Source: Deinococcales bacterium
GTDB lineage: Bacteria; Deinococcota; Deinococci; Deinococcales; JAAFIG01
Direction: 5' to 3'
NCBI GenBank assembly: GCA_043775825.1
Contig: JAYVRX010000047.1
Span: 7,027 to 71,026 of the forward strand
DNA length: 64,000 nucleotides
The translations under genes were made by a program, and so were the position numbers. How positions within the stretch are numbered: position 1 is the first letter of the stretch; every line of letters begins with the position of its first letter. Positions 4,736-15,947 of this stretch are shown one piece after another. Under the pieces are notes generated by a model. The model was not told where the DNA came from. It did not search any database and saw nothing but the letters and a program-made list of their open reading frames with translations.

Positions 4736-4978
4736 ATGAAACAAGTACCATTGAGTAAAATTAAAGATGACCTGTCGCGGTATTTGCACATTGCCCAAAC
4801 AGAAGAAATTATCATTACCCGCCACGGCAAACCCGCCGGTATTCTGGTTGAGTTTGAAAACGAAGACGATTGGTTTGATTACCGTCTCGAGCATGACCCA
4901 AGATTCCAAAATCGTGTCGCAAACGCCCTTCAAAGCCTTCGAGTAGGGCGTGGCGTCAAACTTGAAGACCTCGAGTGA
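4736..4978 (+). CDS. Phd/YefM-type antitoxin, orphan (no adjacent toxin ORF)
   Basis: MKQVPLSKIKDDLSRYLHIAQTEEIIITRHGKPAGILV is a typical Phd/YefM N-terminus. No toxin-sized ORF fits between 4979 and 5070. Confidence 0.7.
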   Translation: MKQVPLSKIKDDLSRYLHIAQTEEIIITRHGKPAGILVEFENEDDWFDYRLEHDPRFQNRVANALQSLRVGRGVKLEDLE

Positions 4979-5070: not shown

Positions 5071-6213
5071 TCACAGATTATTTTGCAAAATGTACTGATC
5101 CAGTGGAATCACACCAATGTTTTTTGCTAACGAATACTGTATTTCTCCTGGATAGATTACATCCAAAGAATCGAGTTGTAATACTTCAAACACGGTTTTC
5201 ATTGAAGCCGTCAGCTTTGGTGCATCGCCACGTTTGAATTCGACACCAAGTCGTTTACCGTCTTTAAACATCAAAAGATCGAGTTCTGCACTGTTGTGCG
5301 CCGCCCAGAAATATGCGCTTTCGGGACGAACGCTCTGCACAACTTGCTCGAGCGCAAAGCCTTCCCAAGAAGCCCCACTTTTAGGATGGGTGAATAAATC
5401 CGATTGATCTCGAATACCAAGCAGGTAGTGCAATAAACCAGTGTCAGGAAAATAAATTTTAGGATGTTTGACTTGACGCTTTGCCAGATTCTCGTGCCAA
5501 GGTTGTAATTGACGAATCATATACGTTTGCGTTAAATGGTCAAGGTAACGCCGTACTGTGGTTTCGCTGCTGCCCATTGACCTTGCAGGGTCGGCAGCGT
5601 TCCAGATTTGACCATGAAAATGCCCAAGCATTGTCCAGAAACGCAACATTGCAGGCGCTGGAACATTGATTCCAAGTTGTGACAAGTCTTGTTCGACAAA
5701 CCGATTAATTGCATTTTTACGCCATTCGTTGCTGTCATCTTCGGTTTGTCCAAGAAACGATTGCGGATAACCACCTCGTCGCCAAAGTAACTCGAGGTTA
5801 TCGTTCCCAACTTCTTCAAGCGAAAAGCCAGCAATTTCGATCACTTCGATGCGCCCCAGAAGCGATTCACTACTTTGTTGTAAGAGGCGCGGTGAGGCAC
5901 TGCCAAGTATCAGGTATTGTCCAAAATCTGGTTTTTGATCCATTAACACCCGCAGCACAGGGAATAAATCTGGGGCTTTCTGAACTTCATCAATGACCAC
6001 TAGCCCCTCAAGTGGTTGTAGCGCGGTCATGGGTTGTTCGAGGCGTACCCGTGAAAGTGGATTCTCGAGGTCGAAGTAATTTGGGTGTGTAAAAGGTAGG
6101 AATTCGCGTGCGAGTGTGGTTTTACCGACTTGGCGCGGTCCAACCAAAGCGACGCTTTTGCTGCGTTGTAAAGCTCGAGCGATTCGATTTTTGAGAGCAA
6201 TACGGTCAATCAT
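5071..6213 (-). CDS. AAA+ ATPase with C-terminal DUF4143-type domain
   Basis: Walker A VGPRQVGKTT, Walker B LVVIDEVQ, overall AAA_14/DUF4143 architecture. Start moved to ATG 6213 (MIDRIALKN). Confidence 0.8.
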   Translation of the reverse strand: MIDRIALKNRIARALQRSKSVALVGPRQVGKTTLAREFLPFTHPNYFDLENPLSRVRLEQPMTALQPLEGLVVIDEVQKAPDLFPVLRVLMDQKPDFGQYLILGSASPRLLQQSSESLLGRIEVIEIAGFSLEEVGNDNLELLWRRGGYPQSFLGQTEDDSNEWRKNAINRFVEQDLSQLGINVPAPAMLRFWTMLGHFHGQIWNAADPARSMGSSETTVRRYLDHLTQTYMIRQLQPWHENLAKRQVKHPKIYFPDTGLLHYLLGIRDQSDLFTHPKSGASWEGFALEQVVQSVRPESAYFWAAHNSAELDLLMFKDGKRLGVEFKRGDAPKLTASMKTVFEVLQLDSLDVIYPGEIQYSLAKNIGVIPLDQYILQNNL

Positions 6214-6304
6214 GATGGTACACTTTAGCATAAATGCTTGAAATTCCCTTGTAAGATGTGGGAATTTCGAAGATTTTGAATGCAATAAGACTCGAGAAGA
6301 AAAA

Positions 6305-6336
6305 GAAAATCTCGAGCCTCCAAAAGCTCGAGATTT
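6305..6336 (-). terminator. Rho-independent terminator of the PA14 lipoprotein gene
   Basis: 12-bp stem aaaatctcgagc / gctcgagatttt, with a CTCGAG in each arm. It is followed on the minus strand by cttttcttct. Confidence 0.7.
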
Positions 6337-6383
6337 TGGAATTTGAGCTTGTAGTGTTGCGCAATTCTAGAATTAAAATGCCT

Positions 6384-9131
6384 TTACCACGTAAAGGGGA
6401 TGGTTTCGCATGTTGACTTTAATGCTTCCCAATTTGCTGATAAATACGAACTTACTTCAGCATAGGCTCCCATTTGAGAAGCTCTTTTCTGAACCCAAAA
6501 GCTTACTGTTTGAAATGGGTTGTTACCGAAAATGCGATAGCCAAATACTCCTGATGCTGAATATGTTGTTATCTTTGGATCGGGATCATAAGTTGAACCT
6601 GTTGCAACAATAGCTTGTTGACCTTCTAACTGAGCTAAACTACCTGGGGTATTAAGTCCGCTGCCCGTACAATTTCCGACGATCCATTGATTTATTTCAT
6701 TAAAATTTAGAAGTTGTCCTTCACCAAATTGATTCAAACCAGCAGACCACTGCATACTTGGTGCTGGATTAGGCAAGCACTTCATACCAACATCAACAGT
6801 TTTCTGTTCTGTTACTGGTGAACCGTTTGCATCAAAAGTTTCATAGTAGACATGAATTGTAAGTGTTTTATAAAATCCTGCTCGAGTGCAGTAAATATCC
6901 GCAGTGTATTGAACTGGTAAAGCTCCTTGTTCGAGAGAATCACCTCTATGAGAAGTGGTTGGAAACCCCCAAGTGCCGTTATAAGGAATTAACTCTACAT
7001 AATAGTTGAGAATACTTCCTGGATCACCAACGTTGGCAATTTTGAATGAAGGGAGTGCATGTTCGTATAGATGAATAGTTGCAAAAGTGTTATCTGCAAT
7101 AATTCCAAGTTGCGGTTTTGCAATGCAATTCAGGATAACATTTACTAAAAGCGGATTTGTAATCCCAGGAACATTATGGAACACCCCAATCGTTCCAGTT
7201 CGTGTTTCCGCAACAGCATCACACTTTGCAGTCACACTGACATTCTGGCTCGAGTTTGCAGGAATGGCATTTGCGCCCGTAAAACCTGAAGGTGAAGCAG
7301 TCAACCACGGTGCAGTAATGCCAAAACCTGAAATCTCGAGATACCCAGTGCCAGGGTTTGTGATGGTTAGGGTTTTTGTGACGCTCGAGTTAAGGGAGGC
7401 TGTGAGGGATATTGGGTTTGGTGCGACGTTGATTTGGGGAATGCCTTGTATGCAATTTATAGTCACAGGAACTGGTATTGCACCATTAGGAGCATTATGA
7501 GTGAGCGTGAATGTTCCAGTCCAAGTTGAAGGGATTTGCGGGCATTTATACCAAATGTATCTTGTGGTAGAGCTACCTGCTGCAACGGTTCCTGATTGGA
7601 TTATTGGTGATAAACGTGCAGCCGAAGTATCGCTCAAAGAAACACTAATTCCCAACCCTTGACCTTGCAACTGAAAACCATACGCTAGTGGTCCATTTCC
7701 TACTGGGGCTTTATTGCCCCACCTAACGGCTACGAATCCTTCATGTCCAAGATCATCTGTTATGTTAATAGGATTAGGGTTTGGTCCGTCGAGAATTGGT
7801 GGACAACCTGGAATAGGTACATTTCCAACAACTCGTTTACCTGCAATACACTCAAGATACGCAGCCCATGCCGCCTCTATTGCATTTCGAGAGAATGCGC
7901 CATTTGCGATTACGCCTAAGGCATTAGTAGAGATTGCTCCACTTATACCTGAACCACCAAGAACAACACCGATTACCTTCCATGTGATTGCTGGTCCTGT
8001 AAGAAGAGGTCCAACACCAGCAAGGGCAGCTCCCAGAACTGCATCACCCACACCACCAATTAATGTGCAAACAGCGTCTCGATAAGCTAAAGCAAGGTCT
8101 ATACAGTTGCCGCTAACACAACCTGAAGAAGGTGGAACTATCCAATCTTGTTTACATATACTATCTATTACTAAACGTGTTTGATTGACTGGTTTAGAAA
8201 TTGCCTGTGATAGGTTAATATCGTAATTTAAGTATACTCTAGCGAGTGCTTTGACTAAATTTTCTTTAGCGTTCGTATTTAACGTTCCATCTGCGTTAAT
8301 CAAATCGCTGAACTTTCCAACATCAACGTTTCTCTTCAGCAATAAATCATAGAATTTTACTGTATCTAAATTTTGGGAATACTTGAGAAGATAGTCTACA
8401 TTCCCCGAAAGATCAATTCTGCCAAAAATTAAACTTATACCACCTTCAACAATAGACTCAAATGCTTTACCTTTTGAGCCACTCGAGACAGTCGTTAAAT
8501 CAGGATTCAGCACCAAACTGGTTGCTTTAAAAGTAGTATTTGCTTGAAGAATTGCAATAACATCTGGAACACTGTAACCCGTTGGGAACAAATTCCCCGT
8601 TGGCACAACCTGCCTTGCCCTGCTCGTACTTTGCCATTCGAGTTTCACCACGCTCGAGTTTGTCGCGTTGCGATAATATTCCAGTCTAATGTCATACTTT
8701 GTATTCGCTTGCAAAGTTACTGTTCCACTGTTCACAGTGCTGGTGTGGTCAGTCCAGTTGTTCACCAGCACTTGCCCGTTTACCATCAACCGTGCGCCGT
8801 CGCTCGAGGTGACGTAAAAGGTATACGTTTCGCTAAAAGCTGGCATGATCTGACCAGTCCAACGCACGCTGTAAGTGCTGGCGGCAATGCCTGTGATTGG
8901 GGTATTTTTTGCCCAAGCTTTGTTGATAGTGGCATCCACTTGGGTTTTGCTTGTGCCTGTAAAGTCTATGTTGTCGTAATATACGCCCGTTAAACCGTTG
9001 GTGGCGGTGGCTCGAGGGTCGTCTTGGCTTGGGTCGGTCTGGTCTGGCGTGGTTGTTTGACCACACGCGACCAGTGCGGTCAGGGTGATGATGCCGAGTA
9101 GGAATCGTTTTAATGTCCCAAAGTGCTTCAT
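6384..9131 (-). CDS. Large secreted lipoprotein: PA14 domain + glycine-zipper-rich central module + Ig/ASH-like C-terminal repeats
   Basis: Lipobox LTALVAC after MKHFGTLKRF. PA14 signature (GLTGVYYDN...TYTFYVTSSDGARLMVNG...YDIRLEYY) at nt about 8604-8996. GxxxG-rich hydrophobic stretch at nt 7893-8066. SD aaggag before ATG 9131. Confidence 0.8.
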   Translation of the reverse strand: MKHFGTLKRFLLGIITLTALVACGQTTTPDQTDPSQDDPRATATNGLTGVYYDNIDFTGTSKTQVDATINKAWAKNTPITGIAASTYSVRWTGQIMPAFSETYTFYVTSSDGARLMVNGQVLVNNWTDHTSTVNSGTVTLQANTKYDIRLEYYRNATNSSVVKLEWQSTSRARQVVPTGNLFPTGYSVPDVIAILQANTTFKATSLVLNPDLTTVSSGSKGKAFESIVEGGISLIFGRIDLSGNVDYLLKYSQNLDTVKFYDLLLKRNVDVGKFSDLINADGTLNTNAKENLVKALARVYLNYDINLSQAISKPVNQTRLVIDSICKQDWIVPPSSGCVSGNCIDLALAYRDAVCTLIGGVGDAVLGAALAGVGPLLTGPAITWKVIGVVLGGSGISGAISTNALGVIANGAFSRNAIEAAWAAYLECIAGKRVVGNVPIPGCPPILDGPNPNPINITDDLGHEGFVAVRWGNKAPVGNGPLAYGFQLQGQGLGISVSLSDTSAARLSPIIQSGTVAAGSSTTRYIWYKCPQIPSTWTGTFTLTHNAPNGAIPVPVTINCIQGIPQINVAPNPISLTASLNSSVTKTLTITNPGTGYLEISGFGITAPWLTASPSGFTGANAIPANSSQNVSVTAKCDAVAETRTGTIGVFHNVPGITNPLLVNVILNCIAKPQLGIIADNTFATIHLYEHALPSFKIANVGDPGSILNYYVELIPYNGTWGFPTTSHRGDSLEQGALPVQYTADIYCTRAGFYKTLTIHVYYETFDANGSPVTEQKTVDVGMKCLPNPAPSMQWSAGLNQFGEGQLLNFNEINQWIVGNCTGSGLNTPGSLAQLEGQQAIVATGSTYDPDPKITTYSASGVFGYRIFGNNPFQTVSFWVQKRASQMGAYAEVSSYLSANWEALKSTCETIPFTW

Positions 9132-9230
9132 GGTTCTCCTTGTATTGCTTTTTAAGTCAGCTTTGGCTTTTGTGCGTTTTAAAGTCTGAAAAGGTGATTG
9201 CAAACAATAAAACGTCAATAAAGCTCGAGA

Positions 9231-9476
9231 TCATTCTTGAAACTTGGGGTTTCCCGAGCGGGAAAGCATTTTAAGTTGAACGATGATTTTGCTGGTTCTG
9301 TGCTGGAAACGGCGGACTTCAAGTTGCGTTGCTTCAATTTCTTGTTCTAAACTGATCGTGTCAATCCAGTCACTTAAGGTTTTAATGCCTTGTTCAACAG
9401 CTTGAATTGGTGATTTACAATTTGTGCCTTCAAGGAACTTTTTGGTGGCTCGGATTAAGTACGCTGTTTTTTTCAT
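9231..9476 (-). CDS. Hypothetical 81-aa coiled-coil-like protein
   Basis: ATG 9476 is preceded by gaggtg. It lies between the peptide gene and the PA14 gene on the same strand. No recognisable family. Confidence 0.35.
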   Translation of the reverse strand: MKKTAYLIRATKKFLEGTNCKSPIQAVEQGIKTLSDWIDTISLEQEIEATQLEVRRFQHRTSKIIVQLKMLSRSGNPKFQE

Positions 9477-9522
9477 GAACACCTCGTGTTGCAACGAAAT
9501 ACAGTGTGGTAGTTGTTTAACG

Positions 9523-9550
9523 AATCTCGAGCCTTTGAAGGCTCGAGATT
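9523..9550 (-). other. Intercistronic hairpin with CTCGAG in both arms
   Basis: aatctcgagcc-tttgaa-ggctcgagatt. 11-bp stem with no clear U tract. It sits downstream of the peptide gene stop. Confidence 0.6.
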
Positions 9551-9612
9551 CTGAAAATGCCTTAGAAAATTGAATTTCTGTAAAATTGCGAACTTTTGGT
9601 AACATCAGCGCT

Positions 9613-9795
9613 TTAGTTGCAGCTTGAAACCAATGTCCAACCTGTTTTGTCAGAGCCTTTCCAAACGGTTGTACAATTTTGTACAGTACATGTGCTATAC
9701 CCTCCAACGGGACGAGTACAGTCAGCTTTCGCATTCATCAGTAAATTGATTGCAAGAAATGAAACAACAGCGATAATTTTCGTAACCTTTTTCAT
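9613..9795 (-). CDS. Small secreted cysteine-containing peptide precursor (60 aa; predicted mature about 36 aa with 4 Cys)
   Basis: Strong SD aaggag 7 nt upstream. Sec-type signal MKKVTKIIAVVSFLAINLLMNAKA, then DCTRPVGGYSTCTVQNCTTVWKGSDKTGWTLVSSCN. Confidence 0.6.
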   Translation of the reverse strand: MKKVTKIIAVVSFLAINLLMNAKADCTRPVGGYSTCTVQNCTTVWKGSDKTGWTLVSSCN

Positions 9796-9982
9796 TGTGA
9801 ATCTCCTTAAAACGATGCGTATTTGATCTCTGAGCCTGGTTGAAAAATATTGAAGACTTTTATCCTCTCAGTGTTGCCAAAACATATTTCTTTCCGACCA
9901 CACCACTTTTCATGTACTCTCCTTCCTCAAAGCACTCAATTTCAAATGCTTTTGTTTTATCCAAAAACAGCTTAAAAAACAG

Positions 9983-10002
9983 GCGGGGAATAGCGGGGAA
10001 TA
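9983..10002 (+). promoter_or_regulatory. Perfect tandem direct repeat GCGGGGAATA x2 in the divergent intergenic region
   Basis: gcggggaata gcggggaata, about 135 nt upstream of the STAND/BTAD regulator start. Direct repeats are the usual site type for SARP/OmpR-like winged-helix domains. Confidence 0.35.
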
Positions 10003-10135
10003 CTTTATGAGAAAAGCCAATTGCATTCGTCTAGCAAGAATCACATCGGTTGTTTAGGTGGCATCGTCAGCCAACCCGAACAGATTTTCTTGGTTTCAAG
10101 CCGTAGAATGTAAGCGTATTTTCAACCACAAAGCC

Positions 10136-13100
10136 ATGACCCTCAAAACGACCCCTCAACACCAACATTCCACCCGTTCAGGTCGGGCGATTCCCAAAGC
10201 ATTGACCAACGAAATTACGCGTCCACGTTTGCTGGCTTTGCTCGAGCAAGCCAAAGACCTGAAATTGATTGCCTTGATTGCTCCCACGGGTTATGGCAAA
10301 ACAACCTTGTTGGCGCAGTACGCTCGAGGGTTAAGCCGTCGGGTGCTTTGGTTGGATTTGCTCGAGGATGCCGCCGATCCAGTGTTTTTGTCTGGGTTGG
10401 TGGCTCAAAATTTGGGTTTTGTGCCGTCCGTACTCGGGTTACAAGCGGCAACAGTGGGTGTGGTGATTGCGCCCGAATCGTTGGCGGCATGTCTTGACCA
10501 AGCCGAACAGAACGTGACCCTTATCGTTGAGGGGATCAATCGTTTGGGTGTGGATGCCTCGAGATGGTTGCACCGTTTTGTGTTGGCACTTGCCGAAGGG
10601 CATCATGTCTTAATCAGCGGTTACGAGGCGGGTGCAATTCCTTTGGCGCGGTATGTCAGCGAAGGCAGCGCTTTGGTGCTTGGCGTTCCTGAATTGGCAT
10701 TTTCGTCCGAAGAAAGCGTGGAATACCTGCTGCTTCGTGCGCCTACGCTTGACGCAAACGCCTTGCATCACTCGCTCGAGGGTTGGGCGGCGGGTTTGGC
10801 ACTTGCCGCCTCTGGAGCACCCCTTGGCTTAGCACCACGCGATTTGGTCTTGGAGGTTTTGAATACTTTGCCCAAAGCGGTTCGGGCTGGCATTGCCGAG
10901 GTTGCTTTGCTCGAGGTTTGGTCTGAAGATGCAGCCCGTCAACTTGGGGCAAGATTGCCAAAGAGCTGGTTGACCAAAGTGCAACGCGCAGGGTTGCCTA
11001 TCGCGCCGCTCGGGGCTGGCAAGTACCGCCCGCATTTGTTGCTCCTCGAGTGTCTCGAGTTTGAACTGCAAGCCGATTCTGTTCGTCATTCCGAATTGCA
11101 CGCTGCCGCCGCACGTCAGGCTGAATTGGAGCAACATCCGCTCGATGCGTTAAAGCATTTTCAACGCGCCGGTTTGCAAGATCAGGCTTTGCGAATTGCT
11201 TCTCAGGTGGCTTACAAGTATGTGCAACGTTGGGAGTTTCGTTTGGTCAGGCAAGTGCTCGAGTCATTTCCAGAATTGGAATTACCCCAAGACTTACTCG
11301 AGTTTCTGGGTGGGGCTTACATCGAAACGGGTGAGGCAACCAAAGGCGAGGCGATACTTCGACGACTTCACAGTTCGGGCAAGCGCACCAGTGCTTTGGG
11401 TTTTCGCTTGGCAGTGATTTCTGAACGTCGTGGAAAGTATCAAGACATGCTCGAGTTTGCTCAGGAAGCAATTGCGCTTGCCAAAAACGATCTTGACCGT
11501 ATGGGTATGATTCGGATGTCAGGAGCAGCGCATCTCGAGTTAGGATTCTTGCCAGAATCGCAACGTTTAACAGATTCTGTCATTAATTGGGCAAAAGCAA
11601 ATGGTGAACTTTCTTTGCTCGGTTTGGCATTGACACAACGCGAAAACATTTTGATCGACATGGGCGATGTTCATGGCGCTCGAGATGCTTCTATAGAAGC
11701 CTTGCGTGTTTATCGTTCGTTCGCTGCGGCAGGTCGTTTGATTATTCCTTTGCACAACATGGCAAACAATTTGCGTATTTTGGATCAACTGGAGCCAGCT
11801 TTTGAAGCGATTGAAGAAGCGATTTTAATTGCAGAACGTGAATCGCATTCAATGATGACAAGGCTCTTGTACATGCGAGGTTTGTTATTTCAACATCAAA
11901 CAGAATTCGAAGCCACTGTTCGAGATTTCAAAACCGCACTTGGAACTTGTGCCGAATTTGGGCAAGAGTTCCTTGCTGCACAGCTTAAACTCGACCTTAT
12001 TTGGGCTTATCAAAACTTGGGGCAATTCCATGAGGCAAACGTATTGTGGCAAGAAGCTCGAGTTGAAGCTCAAAAATTTGGTGCAAATCTCGAGCATCGA
12101 ATTCAAATGCTTGAAGGCTTGGAAGCCTTAGAAAACAACAAATTACCGCTTGCCAATCAGCGTTTCGAGTACGTCGAAACCCACGAAAACGAACCTATCG
12201 ACCTTGCTCGAACCTTGCTCTACCGTGCCGAAGTTGCCAGACGCGAGAGCAGATTAACCCACGAACATGCCTTAAAGCTCGAGCGTCAATTTCAAAAAAT
12301 TGGCAACAGCGGTTTTTTAAGAATTGATGCCGCTAAACTTCGGCTTTTATATCAAGAATTTGTCACTCGGGATTGGTGCGCTCAGCACTTCAAAGATTTT
12401 CTTGAAACAACCCCGAATCTTCCAGCCCAGCAAGTACCGACGCTCGAGTTGGTGGTAAAAAGTTTTGGTGCGTTGCAAGTCAGTATCAATGCTTCACGGG
12501 TTCACATTCCACTGGCTAAAGCGGGCGAGTTGCTGGTCTGGCTCATCTTGAACGGTGCTGCCACTCGAGATGAAATTGTGCGGGCTTTGTGGGGCGACCC
12601 AAACGAACAACGGCATGTCGAGTATTTCAAAATTTGCGTTCGACGGTTACGGGCGGCGTTAACTGAGGCGGTTCAAAATCTGAACATCAATCCCTTACCC
12701 TTCGAGCATCACCTTTACAGCCTGCACGAGCGTTTCAAAATTCATTGCGATGCGCTGCAACTGACCCAAGCGTGCGAATCTAATAGCGTTCAAGCACTTC
12801 AGGCTACCCTTGATGCAGCTCGAAGAACATTTCTGCCAGGTTCGGATACCGAATGGATTCTGAACGCCAGAATGCAGTATCACGACAAAGCCTTGAATGT
12901 TTCCATGACATTAGGGCATCTGCTCGAGCTTGTTAACTCTAAGGAAGCCATTCTAGTGTATCAACGCGTTATCAAACTTGAGCCATTGTACGAAGAGGCG
13001 CACCTGGCTTTAATTCGTGTTTTCCAAGAATTACAAGAGATCAACAACGCTCAAGCGGCGTATTCGCGTTATGTTCAAATGCTCAAACTCGAGTTTGGTA

Positions 13101-13162
13101 AGATTCCCAGCCTCGAGTTGCAAAAAGTTTTTACGCCGTTGGCATCAATTTTAAAAGCCTGA
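10136..13162 (+). CDS. STAND-type NTPase / TPR / C-terminal winged-helix + BTAD transcriptional regulator (MalT/AfsR-like architecture)
   Basis: RPRLLALLEQ...IAPTGYGKTTLLAQYA P-loop, a long helical-repeat middle region, and a C-terminal ELLVWLILNGAATRDEIVRALWG...EPLYEEAHLALIRVF (SARP/BTAD-like). Start moved to ATG 10136. Confidence 0.8.
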   Translation: MTLKTTPQHQHSTRSGRAIPKALTNEITRPRLLALLEQAKDLKLIALIAPTGYGKTTLLAQYARGLSRRVLWLDLLEDAADPVFLSGLVAQNLGFVPSVLGLQAATVGVVIAPESLAACLDQAEQNVTLIVEGINRLGVDASRWLHRFVLALAEGHHVLISGYEAGAIPLARYVSEGSALVLGVPELAFSSEESVEYLLLRAPTLDANALHHSLEGWAAGLALAASGAPLGLAPRDLVLEVLNTLPKAVRAGIAEVALLEVWSEDAARQLGARLPKSWLTKVQRAGLPIAPLGAGKYRPHLLLLECLEFELQADSVRHSELHAAAARQAELEQHPLDALKHFQRAGLQDQALRIASQVAYKYVQRWEFRLVRQVLESFPELELPQDLLEFLGGAYIETGEATKGEAILRRLHSSGKRTSALGFRLAVISERRGKYQDMLEFAQEAIALAKNDLDRMGMIRMSGAAHLELGFLPESQRLTDSVINWAKANGELSLLGLALTQRENILIDMGDVHGARDASIEALRVYRSFAAAGRLIIPLHNMANNLRILDQLEPAFEAIEEAILIAERESHSMMTRLLYMRGLLFQHQTEFEATVRDFKTALGTCAEFGQEFLAAQLKLDLIWAYQNLGQFHEANVLWQEARVEAQKFGANLEHRIQMLEGLEALENNKLPLANQRFEYVETHENEPIDLARTLLYRAEVARRESRLTHEHALKLERQFQKIGNSGFLRIDAAKLRLLYQEFVTRDWCAQHFKDFLETTPNLPAQQVPTLELVVKSFGALQVSINASRVHIPLAKAGELLVWLILNGAATRDEIVRALWGDPNEQRHVEYFKICVRRLRAALTEAVQNLNINPLPFEHHLYSLHERFKIHCDALQLTQACESNSVQALQATLDAARRTFLPGSDTEWILNARMQYHDKALNVSMTLGHLLELVNSKEAILVYQRVIKLEPLYEEAHLALIRVFQELQEINNAQAAYSRYVQMLKLEFGKIPSLELQKVFTPLASILKA

Positions 13163-15144: not shown

Positions 15145-15302
15145 ATTTGCTGGCAATCAAAAGACCTTTGAGTTTAAAAGCTCGAGGGTTTTTGTTTAAA
15201 GCATTGGAACTTTATGTCAATCTTTTAATTTTCTGACAAATTTTAGTTTAATGCCAGATATCAATCATCATGGTAAGATATTCTCGAGGTGACATTGTGA
15301 CC

Positions 15303-15551
15303 ATGATTCGCAAAGAAGTCGAACTCGGGGCAAATGCCCGAGTCGTTATTCCACTCGAGGTGAGACAAGCGCTGCATTGTCAAACGGGTGACAAAATTAT
15401 TTTTCTGGTGACTGATGCAGGGGTGCAACTCACGACTCGGCAAGCTTTAGCCGAACGTTTACATGGCGCACTCGCTAGCGACGATGGTCGCGATCTGACC
15501 AATGAATTACTCGAGTCCAGGCGGCTCGAAGCCACTGCCAAGGGGTGGTGA
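15303..15551 (+). CDS. vapB: AbrB/SpoVT-type antitoxin
   Basis: VELGANARVVIPLEVRQAL is a SpoVT/AbrB swapped-hairpin motif. Its stop abuts the ATG of the PIN gene. Confidence 0.8.
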   Translation: MIRKEVELGANARVVIPLEVRQALHCQTGDKIIFLVTDAGVQLTTRQALAERLHGALASDDGRDLTNELLESRRLEATAKGW

Positions 15552-15947
15552 ATGCTGATTCTGGACGCCTCTGCATTGATTGCATTCATTCGCAGAGAAG
15601 CTGGTGGTGAAGTTGTTAAAAGTCGCATTGCTAAAACTGAATCTTTCATCAGCGTTGTGAATTTAACCGAAGTCAAAGGAAAACTTGTTGGCGCAGGTGA
15701 TTTTACGCCCCAACAAGTCGAATCAGAACTCGAGCAATTGAGCGCCCTGATCGAACCACTGGCTTATGATCTCGAGCAGGCAAACCTAGCGTCATGGTGG
15801 TACGCCCGTAAAAATCCGTATCAGTTATCTTTGGGCGATTGTGCTTGTTTGGGTGCGGCTGAGGCTCGAGGGTTGGAAGTTTTGACCGCAGAACAACGCT
15901 GGAAGAAACTGCCCAACTTACGCGTCAAAGTGACACTGATTTGTTGA
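15552..15947 (+). CDS. vapC: PIN-domain toxin
   Basis: MLILDASALIAF... with acidic PIN residues. 131 aa, immediately follows the antitoxin. Confidence 0.85.
   Translation: MLILDASALIAFIRREAGGEVVKSRIAKTESFISVVNLTEVKGKLVGAGDFTPQQVESELEQLSALIEPLAYDLEQANLASWWYARKNPYQLSLGDCACLGAAEARGLEVLTAEQRWKKLPNLRVKVTLIC

Follow-up and report, generated by a model that had tools for sequence, protein, structure and literature searches.

A question raised by the window, a stretch of 64,000 nucleotides from a Deinococcales bacterium (assembly GCA_043775825.1, contig JAYVRX010000047.1), is whether the large STAND-type regulator encoded there is the dedicated activator of the genes lying divergently to its left, which code for a four-cysteine secreted peptide, a small helical protein and a PA14 surface lipoprotein, and what these genes might do together. 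The window belongs to a metagenome-assembled genome (MAG; G000, 4.54 Mb in 194 contigs, 79% complete). The reading that we favour, and that we consider fairly probable, is that the core of the unit consists of a dedicated activator and its target, and that peptide, small protein and lipoprotein are co-induced via a repeat-promoter located in the divergent spacer. The elements are the following (positions are those of the window; SD, Shine-Dalgarno sequence):

10133..13162 (+): STAND-type activator of 1009 aa, whose ATG start codon is kept in the related metagenome contig L040.
9983..10002: direct repeat, GCGGGGAATA twice in tandem (read on the operon strand, TATTCCCCGC twice), which is predicted to serve the regulator as operator.
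9969..9974 (-): predicted -10-like hexamer TAAGCT, located 8 bp past the 3' repeat and oriented toward the genes of the peptide and the lipoprotein.
9613..9795 (-): peptide precursor of 60 aa with a Sec signal; mature peptide DCTRPVGGYSTCTVQNCTTVWKGSDKTGWTLVSSCN.
9522..9551 (-): hairpin after the peptide gene, with a 13-bp perfect stem built from two CTCGAG copies and a weak U tract.
9231..9476 (-): small helical cytoplasmic protein of 81 aa.
6384..9131 (-), stop codon included: lipoprotein of 915 aa starting with MKHFG, with SD AAGGAG and lipobox LVAC/G.
6306..6337 (-): hairpin resembling a terminator, with a T tract, where the leftward unit ends (-18.4 kcal/mol, z-score -4.1).

The four open reading frames (ORFs), their SD sites, the Sec and lipoprotein signals, the cysteine spacing and the hairpin after the peptide gene were found where a first-pass annotation, made from the sequence of the window without database searches, had placed them. 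The same annotation had proposed a dedicated SARP-like activator, and this proposal is upheld by two observations: the regulator and lipoprotein pair recurs in four genera, and the spacer carries a direct repeat and a -10-like hexamer at the spacing of SARP promoters. As regards the pair, the survey covered 11 loci, spread over four genera of a single uncultured Deinococcales family, and in 10 of them the lipoprotein homologue is divergent to a MalT/BTAD regulator of 940-1000 aa (the window, G001, L123, L040, G011, G007, G017, G012 and two loci of G009). G001, which belongs to the same genus as the window, and the metagenome contig L123 represent genus g1; L040, L041 and L042 are three peptide-bearing metagenome contigs from the Joint Genome Institute. 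In the three other genera the spacer between the two genes measures 140-250 bp and is devoid of small ORFs. Lipoprotein homologues extending over residues 1 to ~670 (34-39% identity) occur only in the same bacterial family; outside it only the PA14 part is matched, except for lipoproteins in two Deinococcus MAGs, where no regulator adjoins. The genes downstream of the lipoprotein differ in every relative.

The second observation concerns the spacer itself. In SARP-controlled promoters direct repeats stand one helical turn apart, the 3' repeat lying 8 bp from the -10 element (PMC10936776), and at the sequence level the same geometry was found in the window and in nine related loci. Indeed, a GGGGAAT/GGGGAAA repeat with a 10-bp period and a single orientation is present in the spacers of G009, G017, G012, G001, L123 and L040-L042; it was counted in nine related loci, and a tenth, G007, has GGGGACA twice at an 11-bp period. 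In every repeat-bearing locus a hexamer (TAAGCT, TATGCT, CACAAT, CACGAT, AACCAT or CATGAT) is located 7-8 bp beyond the second unit and faces the lipoprotein gene. The variant of L040-L042 reads CCAGGGAATA x2, and between the window and L040 both repeat units are altered in concert (CCCCGC to CCCTGG) within an otherwise invariant block. With one mismatch or fewer, the operator motif has five sites in the 4.5-Mb genome; its exact form is unique to the window, and one of the near-matches falls in the spacer of a paralogous regulator.

The number of promoters differs between lineages. G001 and L123 have two copies of the repeat-promoter, one ahead of the small gene and one ahead of the lipoprotein gene, and in the window and L040 the distal copy alone is left, 186 and 177 nt, respectively, upstream of the peptide ATG. 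Since one distal repeat-promoter remains in these two loci, we infer from the promoter geometry that the peptide, small and lipoprotein genes lie on a single regulated transcript.

A mini-ORF of 17 codons (MKSGVVGKKYVLATLRG; 9860-9913 (-)), preceded by a strong SD, is located in the predicted leader, past the repeat-promoter and ahead of the peptide gene. At the aligned position L040-L042 have an SD and an ATG, but the sequence that follows is a different one of 20 codons (MKCNTCKKYF...). A 66-aa ORF called on L040 between regulator and peptide was discarded, as it is not conserved in the window.

The domain order of the regulator is a MalT-like P-loop NTPase, a TPR sensor region and a C-terminal SARP-type unit, the last made of a weakly matched OmpR-type winged helix and a BTAD domain (PF03704, cut-off 22.1; the whole protein scores 30.3 bits and its C-terminal piece 34.1 bits). 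With the MalT/LAL activators it shares an N-terminal P-loop NTPase with a helical arm, a similar length (~1000 aa) and a sensor-like repeat region at the C-terminus. However, the MalT equivalog NF003420 matches only residues 20-389 (E 3e-19), its 68.6 bits being far under the equivalog cut-off of 537, the Pfam search revealed no LuxR-type helix-turn-helix, and the predicted DNA-binding part is instead the SARP-type unit, so that the protein is not a MalT/LAL activator over its full length. AfsR and the other large SARPs of Streptomyces have in common with it the OmpR-type winged helix with BTAD, the STAND/NOD ATPase and the TPRs; moreover, in the afs box a pair of direct repeats is spaced by roughly one helical turn and the 3' unit stands ~8 bp from a weak -10 (PMC10936776), and afsR-afsS resembles the window in that the target begins beside the regulator gene and has a small protein of ~65 aa among its products. 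For the latter the likeness to AfsS is one of size and position. The two systems differ in phylum (Deinococcota here) and in target: an antibiotic pathway in Streptomyces, a surface lipoprotein in the window. A literature search on this regulator type in Deinococcus yielded nothing useful. On the whole, the unit is a lineage-specific form of SARP/STAND control, a known regulatory design; it does not overturn current ideas, and it offers a clean pairing of regulator, operator and target, beyond actinomycetes, for a domain-permuted SARP/STAND activator.

The regulator is 86% identical in amino acid sequence to that of L040. In L123 it was called as two ORFs (583 and 411 aa), which suggests a frameshift and might be a sign of decay in this sister locus.

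The lipoprotein, as the presumed ancestral target, deserves a closer description. It comprises, from the N-terminus, the following modules (minus strand):

8589-8999: PA14 domain, residues 45-181.
8172-8588: beta domain.
7797-8171: Cys-bracketed, Gly-rich hydrophobic helices.
6762-7796: three Ig/ASH-like (immunoglobulin-like) domains.
6387-6761: variable C-terminus.

The PA14 domain scored 95.8 bits (cut-off 24) and BACON_2 a marginal 26.4 bits (cut-off 25). The AlphaFold 2 model is poor (predicted local distance difference test, pLDDT, 55), only the Ig-like domains, three beta-sandwiches, being confident, and a Foldseek search with it retrieved generic tandem Ig/ASH proteins only; the helical hydrophobic region cannot be interpreted from the model. 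The PA14 domain, the Ig/ASH-like repeats and the P-loop/TPR/BTAD regulator named in the first-pass annotation were all confirmed (by Pfam and NCBIfam scores and, for the Ig/ASH-like repeats, by Foldseek). The glycine-zipper-like module rich in GxxxG survived in part: a hydrophobic Gly-rich stretch does exist (residues ~352-400, Kyte-Doolittle 1.4-1.8, that is, borderline transmembrane), its helices flanked by conserved Cys, but it has 17% Gly and two strict GxxxG motifs, residues 324-454 gave no Pfam match at E <= 10, the glycine-zipper models (Gly-zipper_Omp, YMGG, Rick_17kDa_Anti) included, and the module is not conserved in the family, being missing in three relatives. A profile of the beta and hydrophobic modules, run against 1.84 billion representatives, retrieved only 67 clusters, and the layout is the same in almost all of these.

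When compared module by module with the window, the L040 protein shows 93% identity in the signal, 91% in PA14, 24% in the beta domain, 39% in the hydrophobic module, 80%, 85% and 37% in Ig-A, Ig-B and Ig-C, and 34% in the C-terminus; for the G001 protein the corresponding values are 35%, 74%, 74%, 82%, 87%, 23%, 10% and 16%. The breakpoints of the nucleotide alignments coincide with the module borders, and across genera PA14 retains 65-75% identity and no other module exceeds 25%. Judging from these comparisons, the lipoprotein is a fast-evolving mosaic in which PA14 is conserved and the other modules are shuffled. The PA14 module is ~50% identical over its full length to that of Clostridium thermocellum RsgI3 (PDB 6qe7; E 5e-64, 126 bits for module A), and shares with it an extracellular location. 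The PA14 modules of RsgI3 and RsgI4 (PDB 6qe7, 6qdi) of cellulolytic clostridia sense pectin or xylan via a calcium loop (PMC6852018). The window protein has a single PA14 on a lipoprotein, not a dyad on an anti-sigma factor, and its specificity loop CBL2 reads RNATN, versus QHVRA (pectin) and NNTGN (xylan).

On these grounds the following mechanism may be proposed. Two protomers of the cytoplasmic STAND regulator would bind the tandem GGGGAAT repeats in the divergent spacer; the repeats would stand in for a -35 element, and RNA polymerase would start ~7 nt past the -10-like hexamer and move leftward. As ancestral target we envisage a lipid-anchored surface protein whose conserved N-terminal PA14 would bind an extracellular ligand, probably a polysaccharide; a role of the unit in adhesion or competition is conceivable. 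The other modules of this protein would have been exchanged among lineages, a pattern seen in surface proteins that face diversifying pressure. The small helical gene would have been inserted between promoter and lipoprotein gene in this genus, and the gene for the Sec-exported peptide, whose four Cys in 36 aa suggest two disulfides, presumably C2-C35 and C12-C17, later, in the sub-lineage of the window. Given the single remaining repeat-promoter, activation of the regulator would switch on peptide, small protein and lipoprotein together, the hairpin after the peptide gene favouring the peptide transcript.

Several findings weigh against one or another step of this scheme. The repeat has a 10-bp period, versus the 11 bp typical of SARPs, AfsR included, and under the pattern used no repeat was found in G011 or in the second G009 locus. 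In the regulator the ATPase and the TPRs precede the SARP unit, which is located at the C-terminus, not at the N-terminus (the order of AfsR is SARP-ATPase-TPR), and its winged helix (Trans_reg_C, residues ~801-846, just before BTAD; E 0.014, 15.9 bits) falls below the Pfam cut-off of 26.2, DNA binding being here a prediction from sequence. The leftward genes are separated by 136 and 99 nt and by a strong hairpin, which could split them into distinct transcripts, and a promoter-like TTGCAA-16-TAAAAC precedes the lipoprotein gene. The regulator is only 36% identical to its syntenic counterpart in G001, of the same genus, and in a tree of 13 rows it clusters with paralogues from its own genome, not with the syntenic regulators of other genera (support 91/99, not decisive); on account of these two findings, the regulator at this locus may have been exchanged, or may evolve very fast. 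Lastly, the DcisD calcium motif of lectin-type PA14 domains is replaced by S-D in the window and its genus, by S-G in genus g5 and in the metagenome homologue P0004, and by A-D in G007; sugar binding by PA14 is therefore not assured.

Turning to the two small genes, their distribution allows the growth of the unit to be followed. The small helical gene is present and the peptide gene absent in the genus g1 loci (G001 and L123), and the peptide occurs only in the window and in L040-L042, with identical gene order. Since small ORFs are lacking in the other genera, the order of events, as read from gene content, is regulator and lipoprotein first, then insertion of the small helical gene and then of the peptide gene. 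Three stages of operon growth would thus be preserved: the lipoprotein alone, the addition of the small protein with a duplicated promoter, and the addition of the secreted peptide with one promoter. The first-pass annotation had treated the three leftward genes as one operon; they are not an ancestral functional trio, as most relatives have the lipoprotein only, the small gene is multicopy and the peptide is a recent insertion.

The peptide gene has an SD (AAGGAG) 7 nt before its ATG and a predicted cleavage site AKA/D, which would release a mature form of 36 aa with Cys at positions 2, 12, 17 and 35. Its closest homologue, P0007, is 80% identical and keeps all four Cys and the cleavage site; in a search of 5.8 billion proteins it was the only one found. 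Scans of metagenome contigs (back-translated alignment and IUPAC pattern) gave no matches, and comparison with PDB and Pfam gave none at any threshold; weak matches in genus g5 were rejected as antisense frames of pilT. Between the window and L040 the synonymous rate (dS) is 0.71 and the ratio of nonsynonymous to synonymous rates (dN/dS) 0.18, signal and mature part alike. Of the three other forward and reverse frames, taken as controls, two reach a dN/dS of ~1 or more; an antisense frame sharing third positions with the peptide also has a low ratio, but is without a start codon in L040. The ORF is moreover an island of conservation, since ~140 nt upstream and the full stretch downstream to the next gene cannot be aligned between the two loci. 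The conservation of this ORF had been set beforehand as a test able to refute the first-pass interpretation, and purifying selection was seen in a second lineage; from its substitution pattern, the peptide gene is a real gene under purifying selection, though a very restricted one.

As to the hairpin that follows it, its stability is -23.2 kcal/mol (z-score -5.8), and none of 200 shuffles was as stable; it is possibly an attenuator or an RNA-stabilising element. L040 and L041 carry, at the matching place just after the peptide stop codon, a non-homologous 16-bp hairpin. Its loop is reverse-complemented between L040:4042-4083 and L041:1220-1261 (GTGCATTAATTC versus GAATTAATGCAC) in otherwise near-identical contigs, which represents an inversion between the stem arms.

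The small helical protein belongs to a family of stand-alone proteins of 65-80 aa with the motif Y-L-x-R-A-x-K-x-F-L-x-G-T...P-x-x-A-V-x-x-G...W-x-D. The first-pass annotation was right as to the presence of the ORF and not as to the length of the protein: orthologues have 68 aa, and in the window a 1-nt deletion near codon 63 has created a new C-terminal tail. According to a profile search, the family has 13 copies in the window genome and 1-13 in each of 16 same-family genomes, and among 64 genomes from elsewhere in the order it was detected in one. The AlphaFold 2 model (pLDDT 83) has three helices, the conserved N-terminal 50 residues exceeding a pLDDT of 90, and neither a fold match nor any relative in Pfam, NCBIfam, PHROG, PADLOC or PDB was found. 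The paralogues stand alone beside varied genes, and for this reason the small protein is not the peptide's dedicated partner; a role as toxin-antitoxin or immunity protein was rejected, no paired toxin gene being present at its 13 loci. Three of the 13 copies adjoin, or lie one gene from, large STAND/SARP regulators, and tandem 11-bp repeats precede two further copies (such repeats occur in 2.4% of upstream regions, and the chance of 2/11 is 0.027). By analogy, an AfsS-like role of the family is possible. In addition to the four-Cys secreted peptide and the mosaic PA14 lipoprotein, this makes the 68-aa helical protein the third uncharacterised family of the locus.

Among the explanations that compete with co-induction, the one that survives best holds that only the regulator and the lipoprotein are functional, the peptide and small genes being neutral or independently expressed insertions. 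The insertions are indeed lineage-restricted; the small gene has a frameshifted tail in the window and an in-frame TGA in G001, and its paralogues have varied neighbours; and the leftward genes are GC-poor (35-47% versus 50% in the genome) and poor in CTCGAG relative to the genome. A neutral passenger, however, would hardly account for a peptide under purifying selection while both of its flanks diverged past alignment, nor for the hairpin kept after the gene in both peptide-bearing lineages despite its differing sequence; furthermore, in G001 and L123 a separate copy of the repeat-promoter precedes the small gene, which argues for its recruitment into the regulon. We regard this explanation as unlikely.

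The G001 orthologue of the small gene (L012, G001:C184, 8544-8753) carries the stop codon mentioned above as a change of CGA to TGA at codon 9, a sign of decay. Further copies of the gene in G000 lie at C17:20526-20714, C95:8995-9162, C43:22054-22272, C178:7635-7868, C88:62220-62483 and C49:825-1019 and 7376-7612, and on contigs C90, C72, C18, C9 and C22.

The proposed co-induction of surface and secreted products is best viewed against the genomic context of the regulator family. The window genome encodes at least 27 BTAD proteins, most of 1000-1300 aa, and the gene of the regulator's closest paralogue (37% identity) is directly followed by SdpC-like, SdpA and SdpB genes. The clusters in question are the following (contigs of G000):

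C190:16802-24039: Sdp-like cluster of a lipoprotein, an SdpC-like toxin, SdpA and an SdpB-DCC fusion.
C100:1-6299 and C125:3801-11372: regulator paralogue with a small secreted protein, a membrane protein of ~250 aa, an HTTM/SdpB-like protein and a DCC thiol-disulfide protein.

SdpA (92 bits) and SdpB (252 bits) are both above cut-off, the SdpC-like protein was matched with E 4e-13, and the small secreted protein at C100 is of the Gly-zipper type. The likeness of the window to SdpABC systems consists in the regulator paralogue beside them, which links the regulator family to secreted antagonistic factors; no SdpA, SdpB or SdpC is present at the window locus. Within two genes of 30 regulators, 8 lipoproteins of at least 540 aa were observed against ~1.4 expected (crude binomial p ~1e-4), and the lipoproteins adjoining regulators include papain-like and subtilase proteases, beta-helix, RCC1, FG-GAP/LamG, Big_13 and DUF11 proteins. 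Signal-peptide proteins in general are not enriched beside BTAD regulators (14 of 57 neighbours versus a 20% background, in a crude test). Because paralogues adjoin secreted-factor clusters and large lipoproteins, the window unit represents one case of a recurrent design, in which a large STAND-SARP regulator is coupled to an extracellular factor.

This context also bears on the idea that the locus is an antagonism cassette, in which the lipoprotein would be a contact-dependent surface toxin, its PA14 docking on a polysaccharide of the target cell and its Cys-bracketed, Gly-rich hydrophobic hairpin entering the membrane of that cell, with the peptide as a bacteriocin-like partner. The Sdp-like cluster and the secreted Gly-zipper proteins with HTTM/DCC partners beside regulator paralogues speak for it, but the other lipoproteins adjoining such regulators are of non-toxin types (protease, beta-helix, RCC1 and FG-GAP). 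The conserved N-terminus and the shuffled downstream modules of the lipoprotein resemble polymorphic toxins; this mosaic pattern is all that is shared with them at the locus, where neither a C-terminal toxin domain nor a cognate immunity gene was found. The hydrophobic stretch of the lipoprotein reaches a Kyte-Doolittle value of 1.8, yet no module matches a toxin, pore-former or glycine-zipper family, and three family members lack the hairpin altogether. The peptide, for its part, has features in common with Sec-dependent class II disulfide bacteriocins (small size and Sec export, paired Cys, a strong ribosome-binding site and a strong hairpin after the gene, as often in bacteriocin structural genes), but it has no YGNGV box, no bacteriocin family or solved-structure match and no dedicated immunity gene; Bacteriocin_II and other bacteriocin models gave no matches on it, and its leader is of the Sec type. 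Its C-x4-C-T-x-V-W stretch presumably resembles the disulfide loop of pediocin-like peptides, and we take this as a lead only. No immunity-like gene is conserved adjacent to or downstream of the unit, where the genes vary among relatives, and the small helical protein predates the peptide and has ~13 paralogues elsewhere, so it cannot be a dedicated immunity protein. Of the bacteriocin or surface-toxin cassette suggested by the first-pass annotation there remains the presence of SdpABC-like and Gly-zipper cassettes beside paralogues, which is a matter of context; a bacteriocin or toxin role is a guess, and the antagonism explanation as a whole seems to us rather improbable.

A broader scheme would have the bacterial family run ~30 STAND-SARP sensors, each driving one weapon or tool for use outside the cell (Sdp-like toxin, Gly-zipper peptide, protease or lectin-like lipoprotein). 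The window unit would then be a new two-part contact-dependent device, combining PA14 docking with insertion of a disulfide-locked hairpin, alongside a new family of 36-aa disulfide-stapled peptides and with the multicopy 68-aa proteins as AfsS-like outputs; we put this forward as highly speculative and probably wrong. Very improbable, finally, is RRNPP-like signalling, in which the secreted peptide would be a pheromone that re-enters the cell and is bound by the regulator TPRs for self-induction: the Sec-exported peptide is indeed encoded adjacent and divergent to a TPR-containing regulator and first behind its predicted promoter, as positive feedback would have it, but most relatives, same genus included, have the regulator/lipoprotein pair and the operator without the peptide, Opp imports short linear peptides, from which a 36-aa mature form with four conserved Cys and probable extracellular disulfides differs, no part of the regulator lies in the membrane or outside the cell, and the locus has no peptide transporter.

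Some minor observations concern the genome and the surroundings of the unit. CTCGAG, the hexamer from which the stem of the peptide-gene hairpin is built, has 28,914 sites in the 4.54 Mb of the genome (6.4 per kb, that is, ~26 times the random expectation of ~0.24 per kb), both within genes and in intergenic hairpins, and it is depleted in the peptide, small-protein and lipoprotein genes. The flanks contain the following genes:

4736-4978 (+): solitary Phd/YefM antitoxin-like gene.
5071-6285 (-): AAA_14/DUF4143 ATPase matching the candidate defence family PDC-S01 (246 bits).
15270-15947 (+): pair of ORFs resembling an AbrB-type antitoxin and a PIN toxin, as judged by inspection of the sequence.

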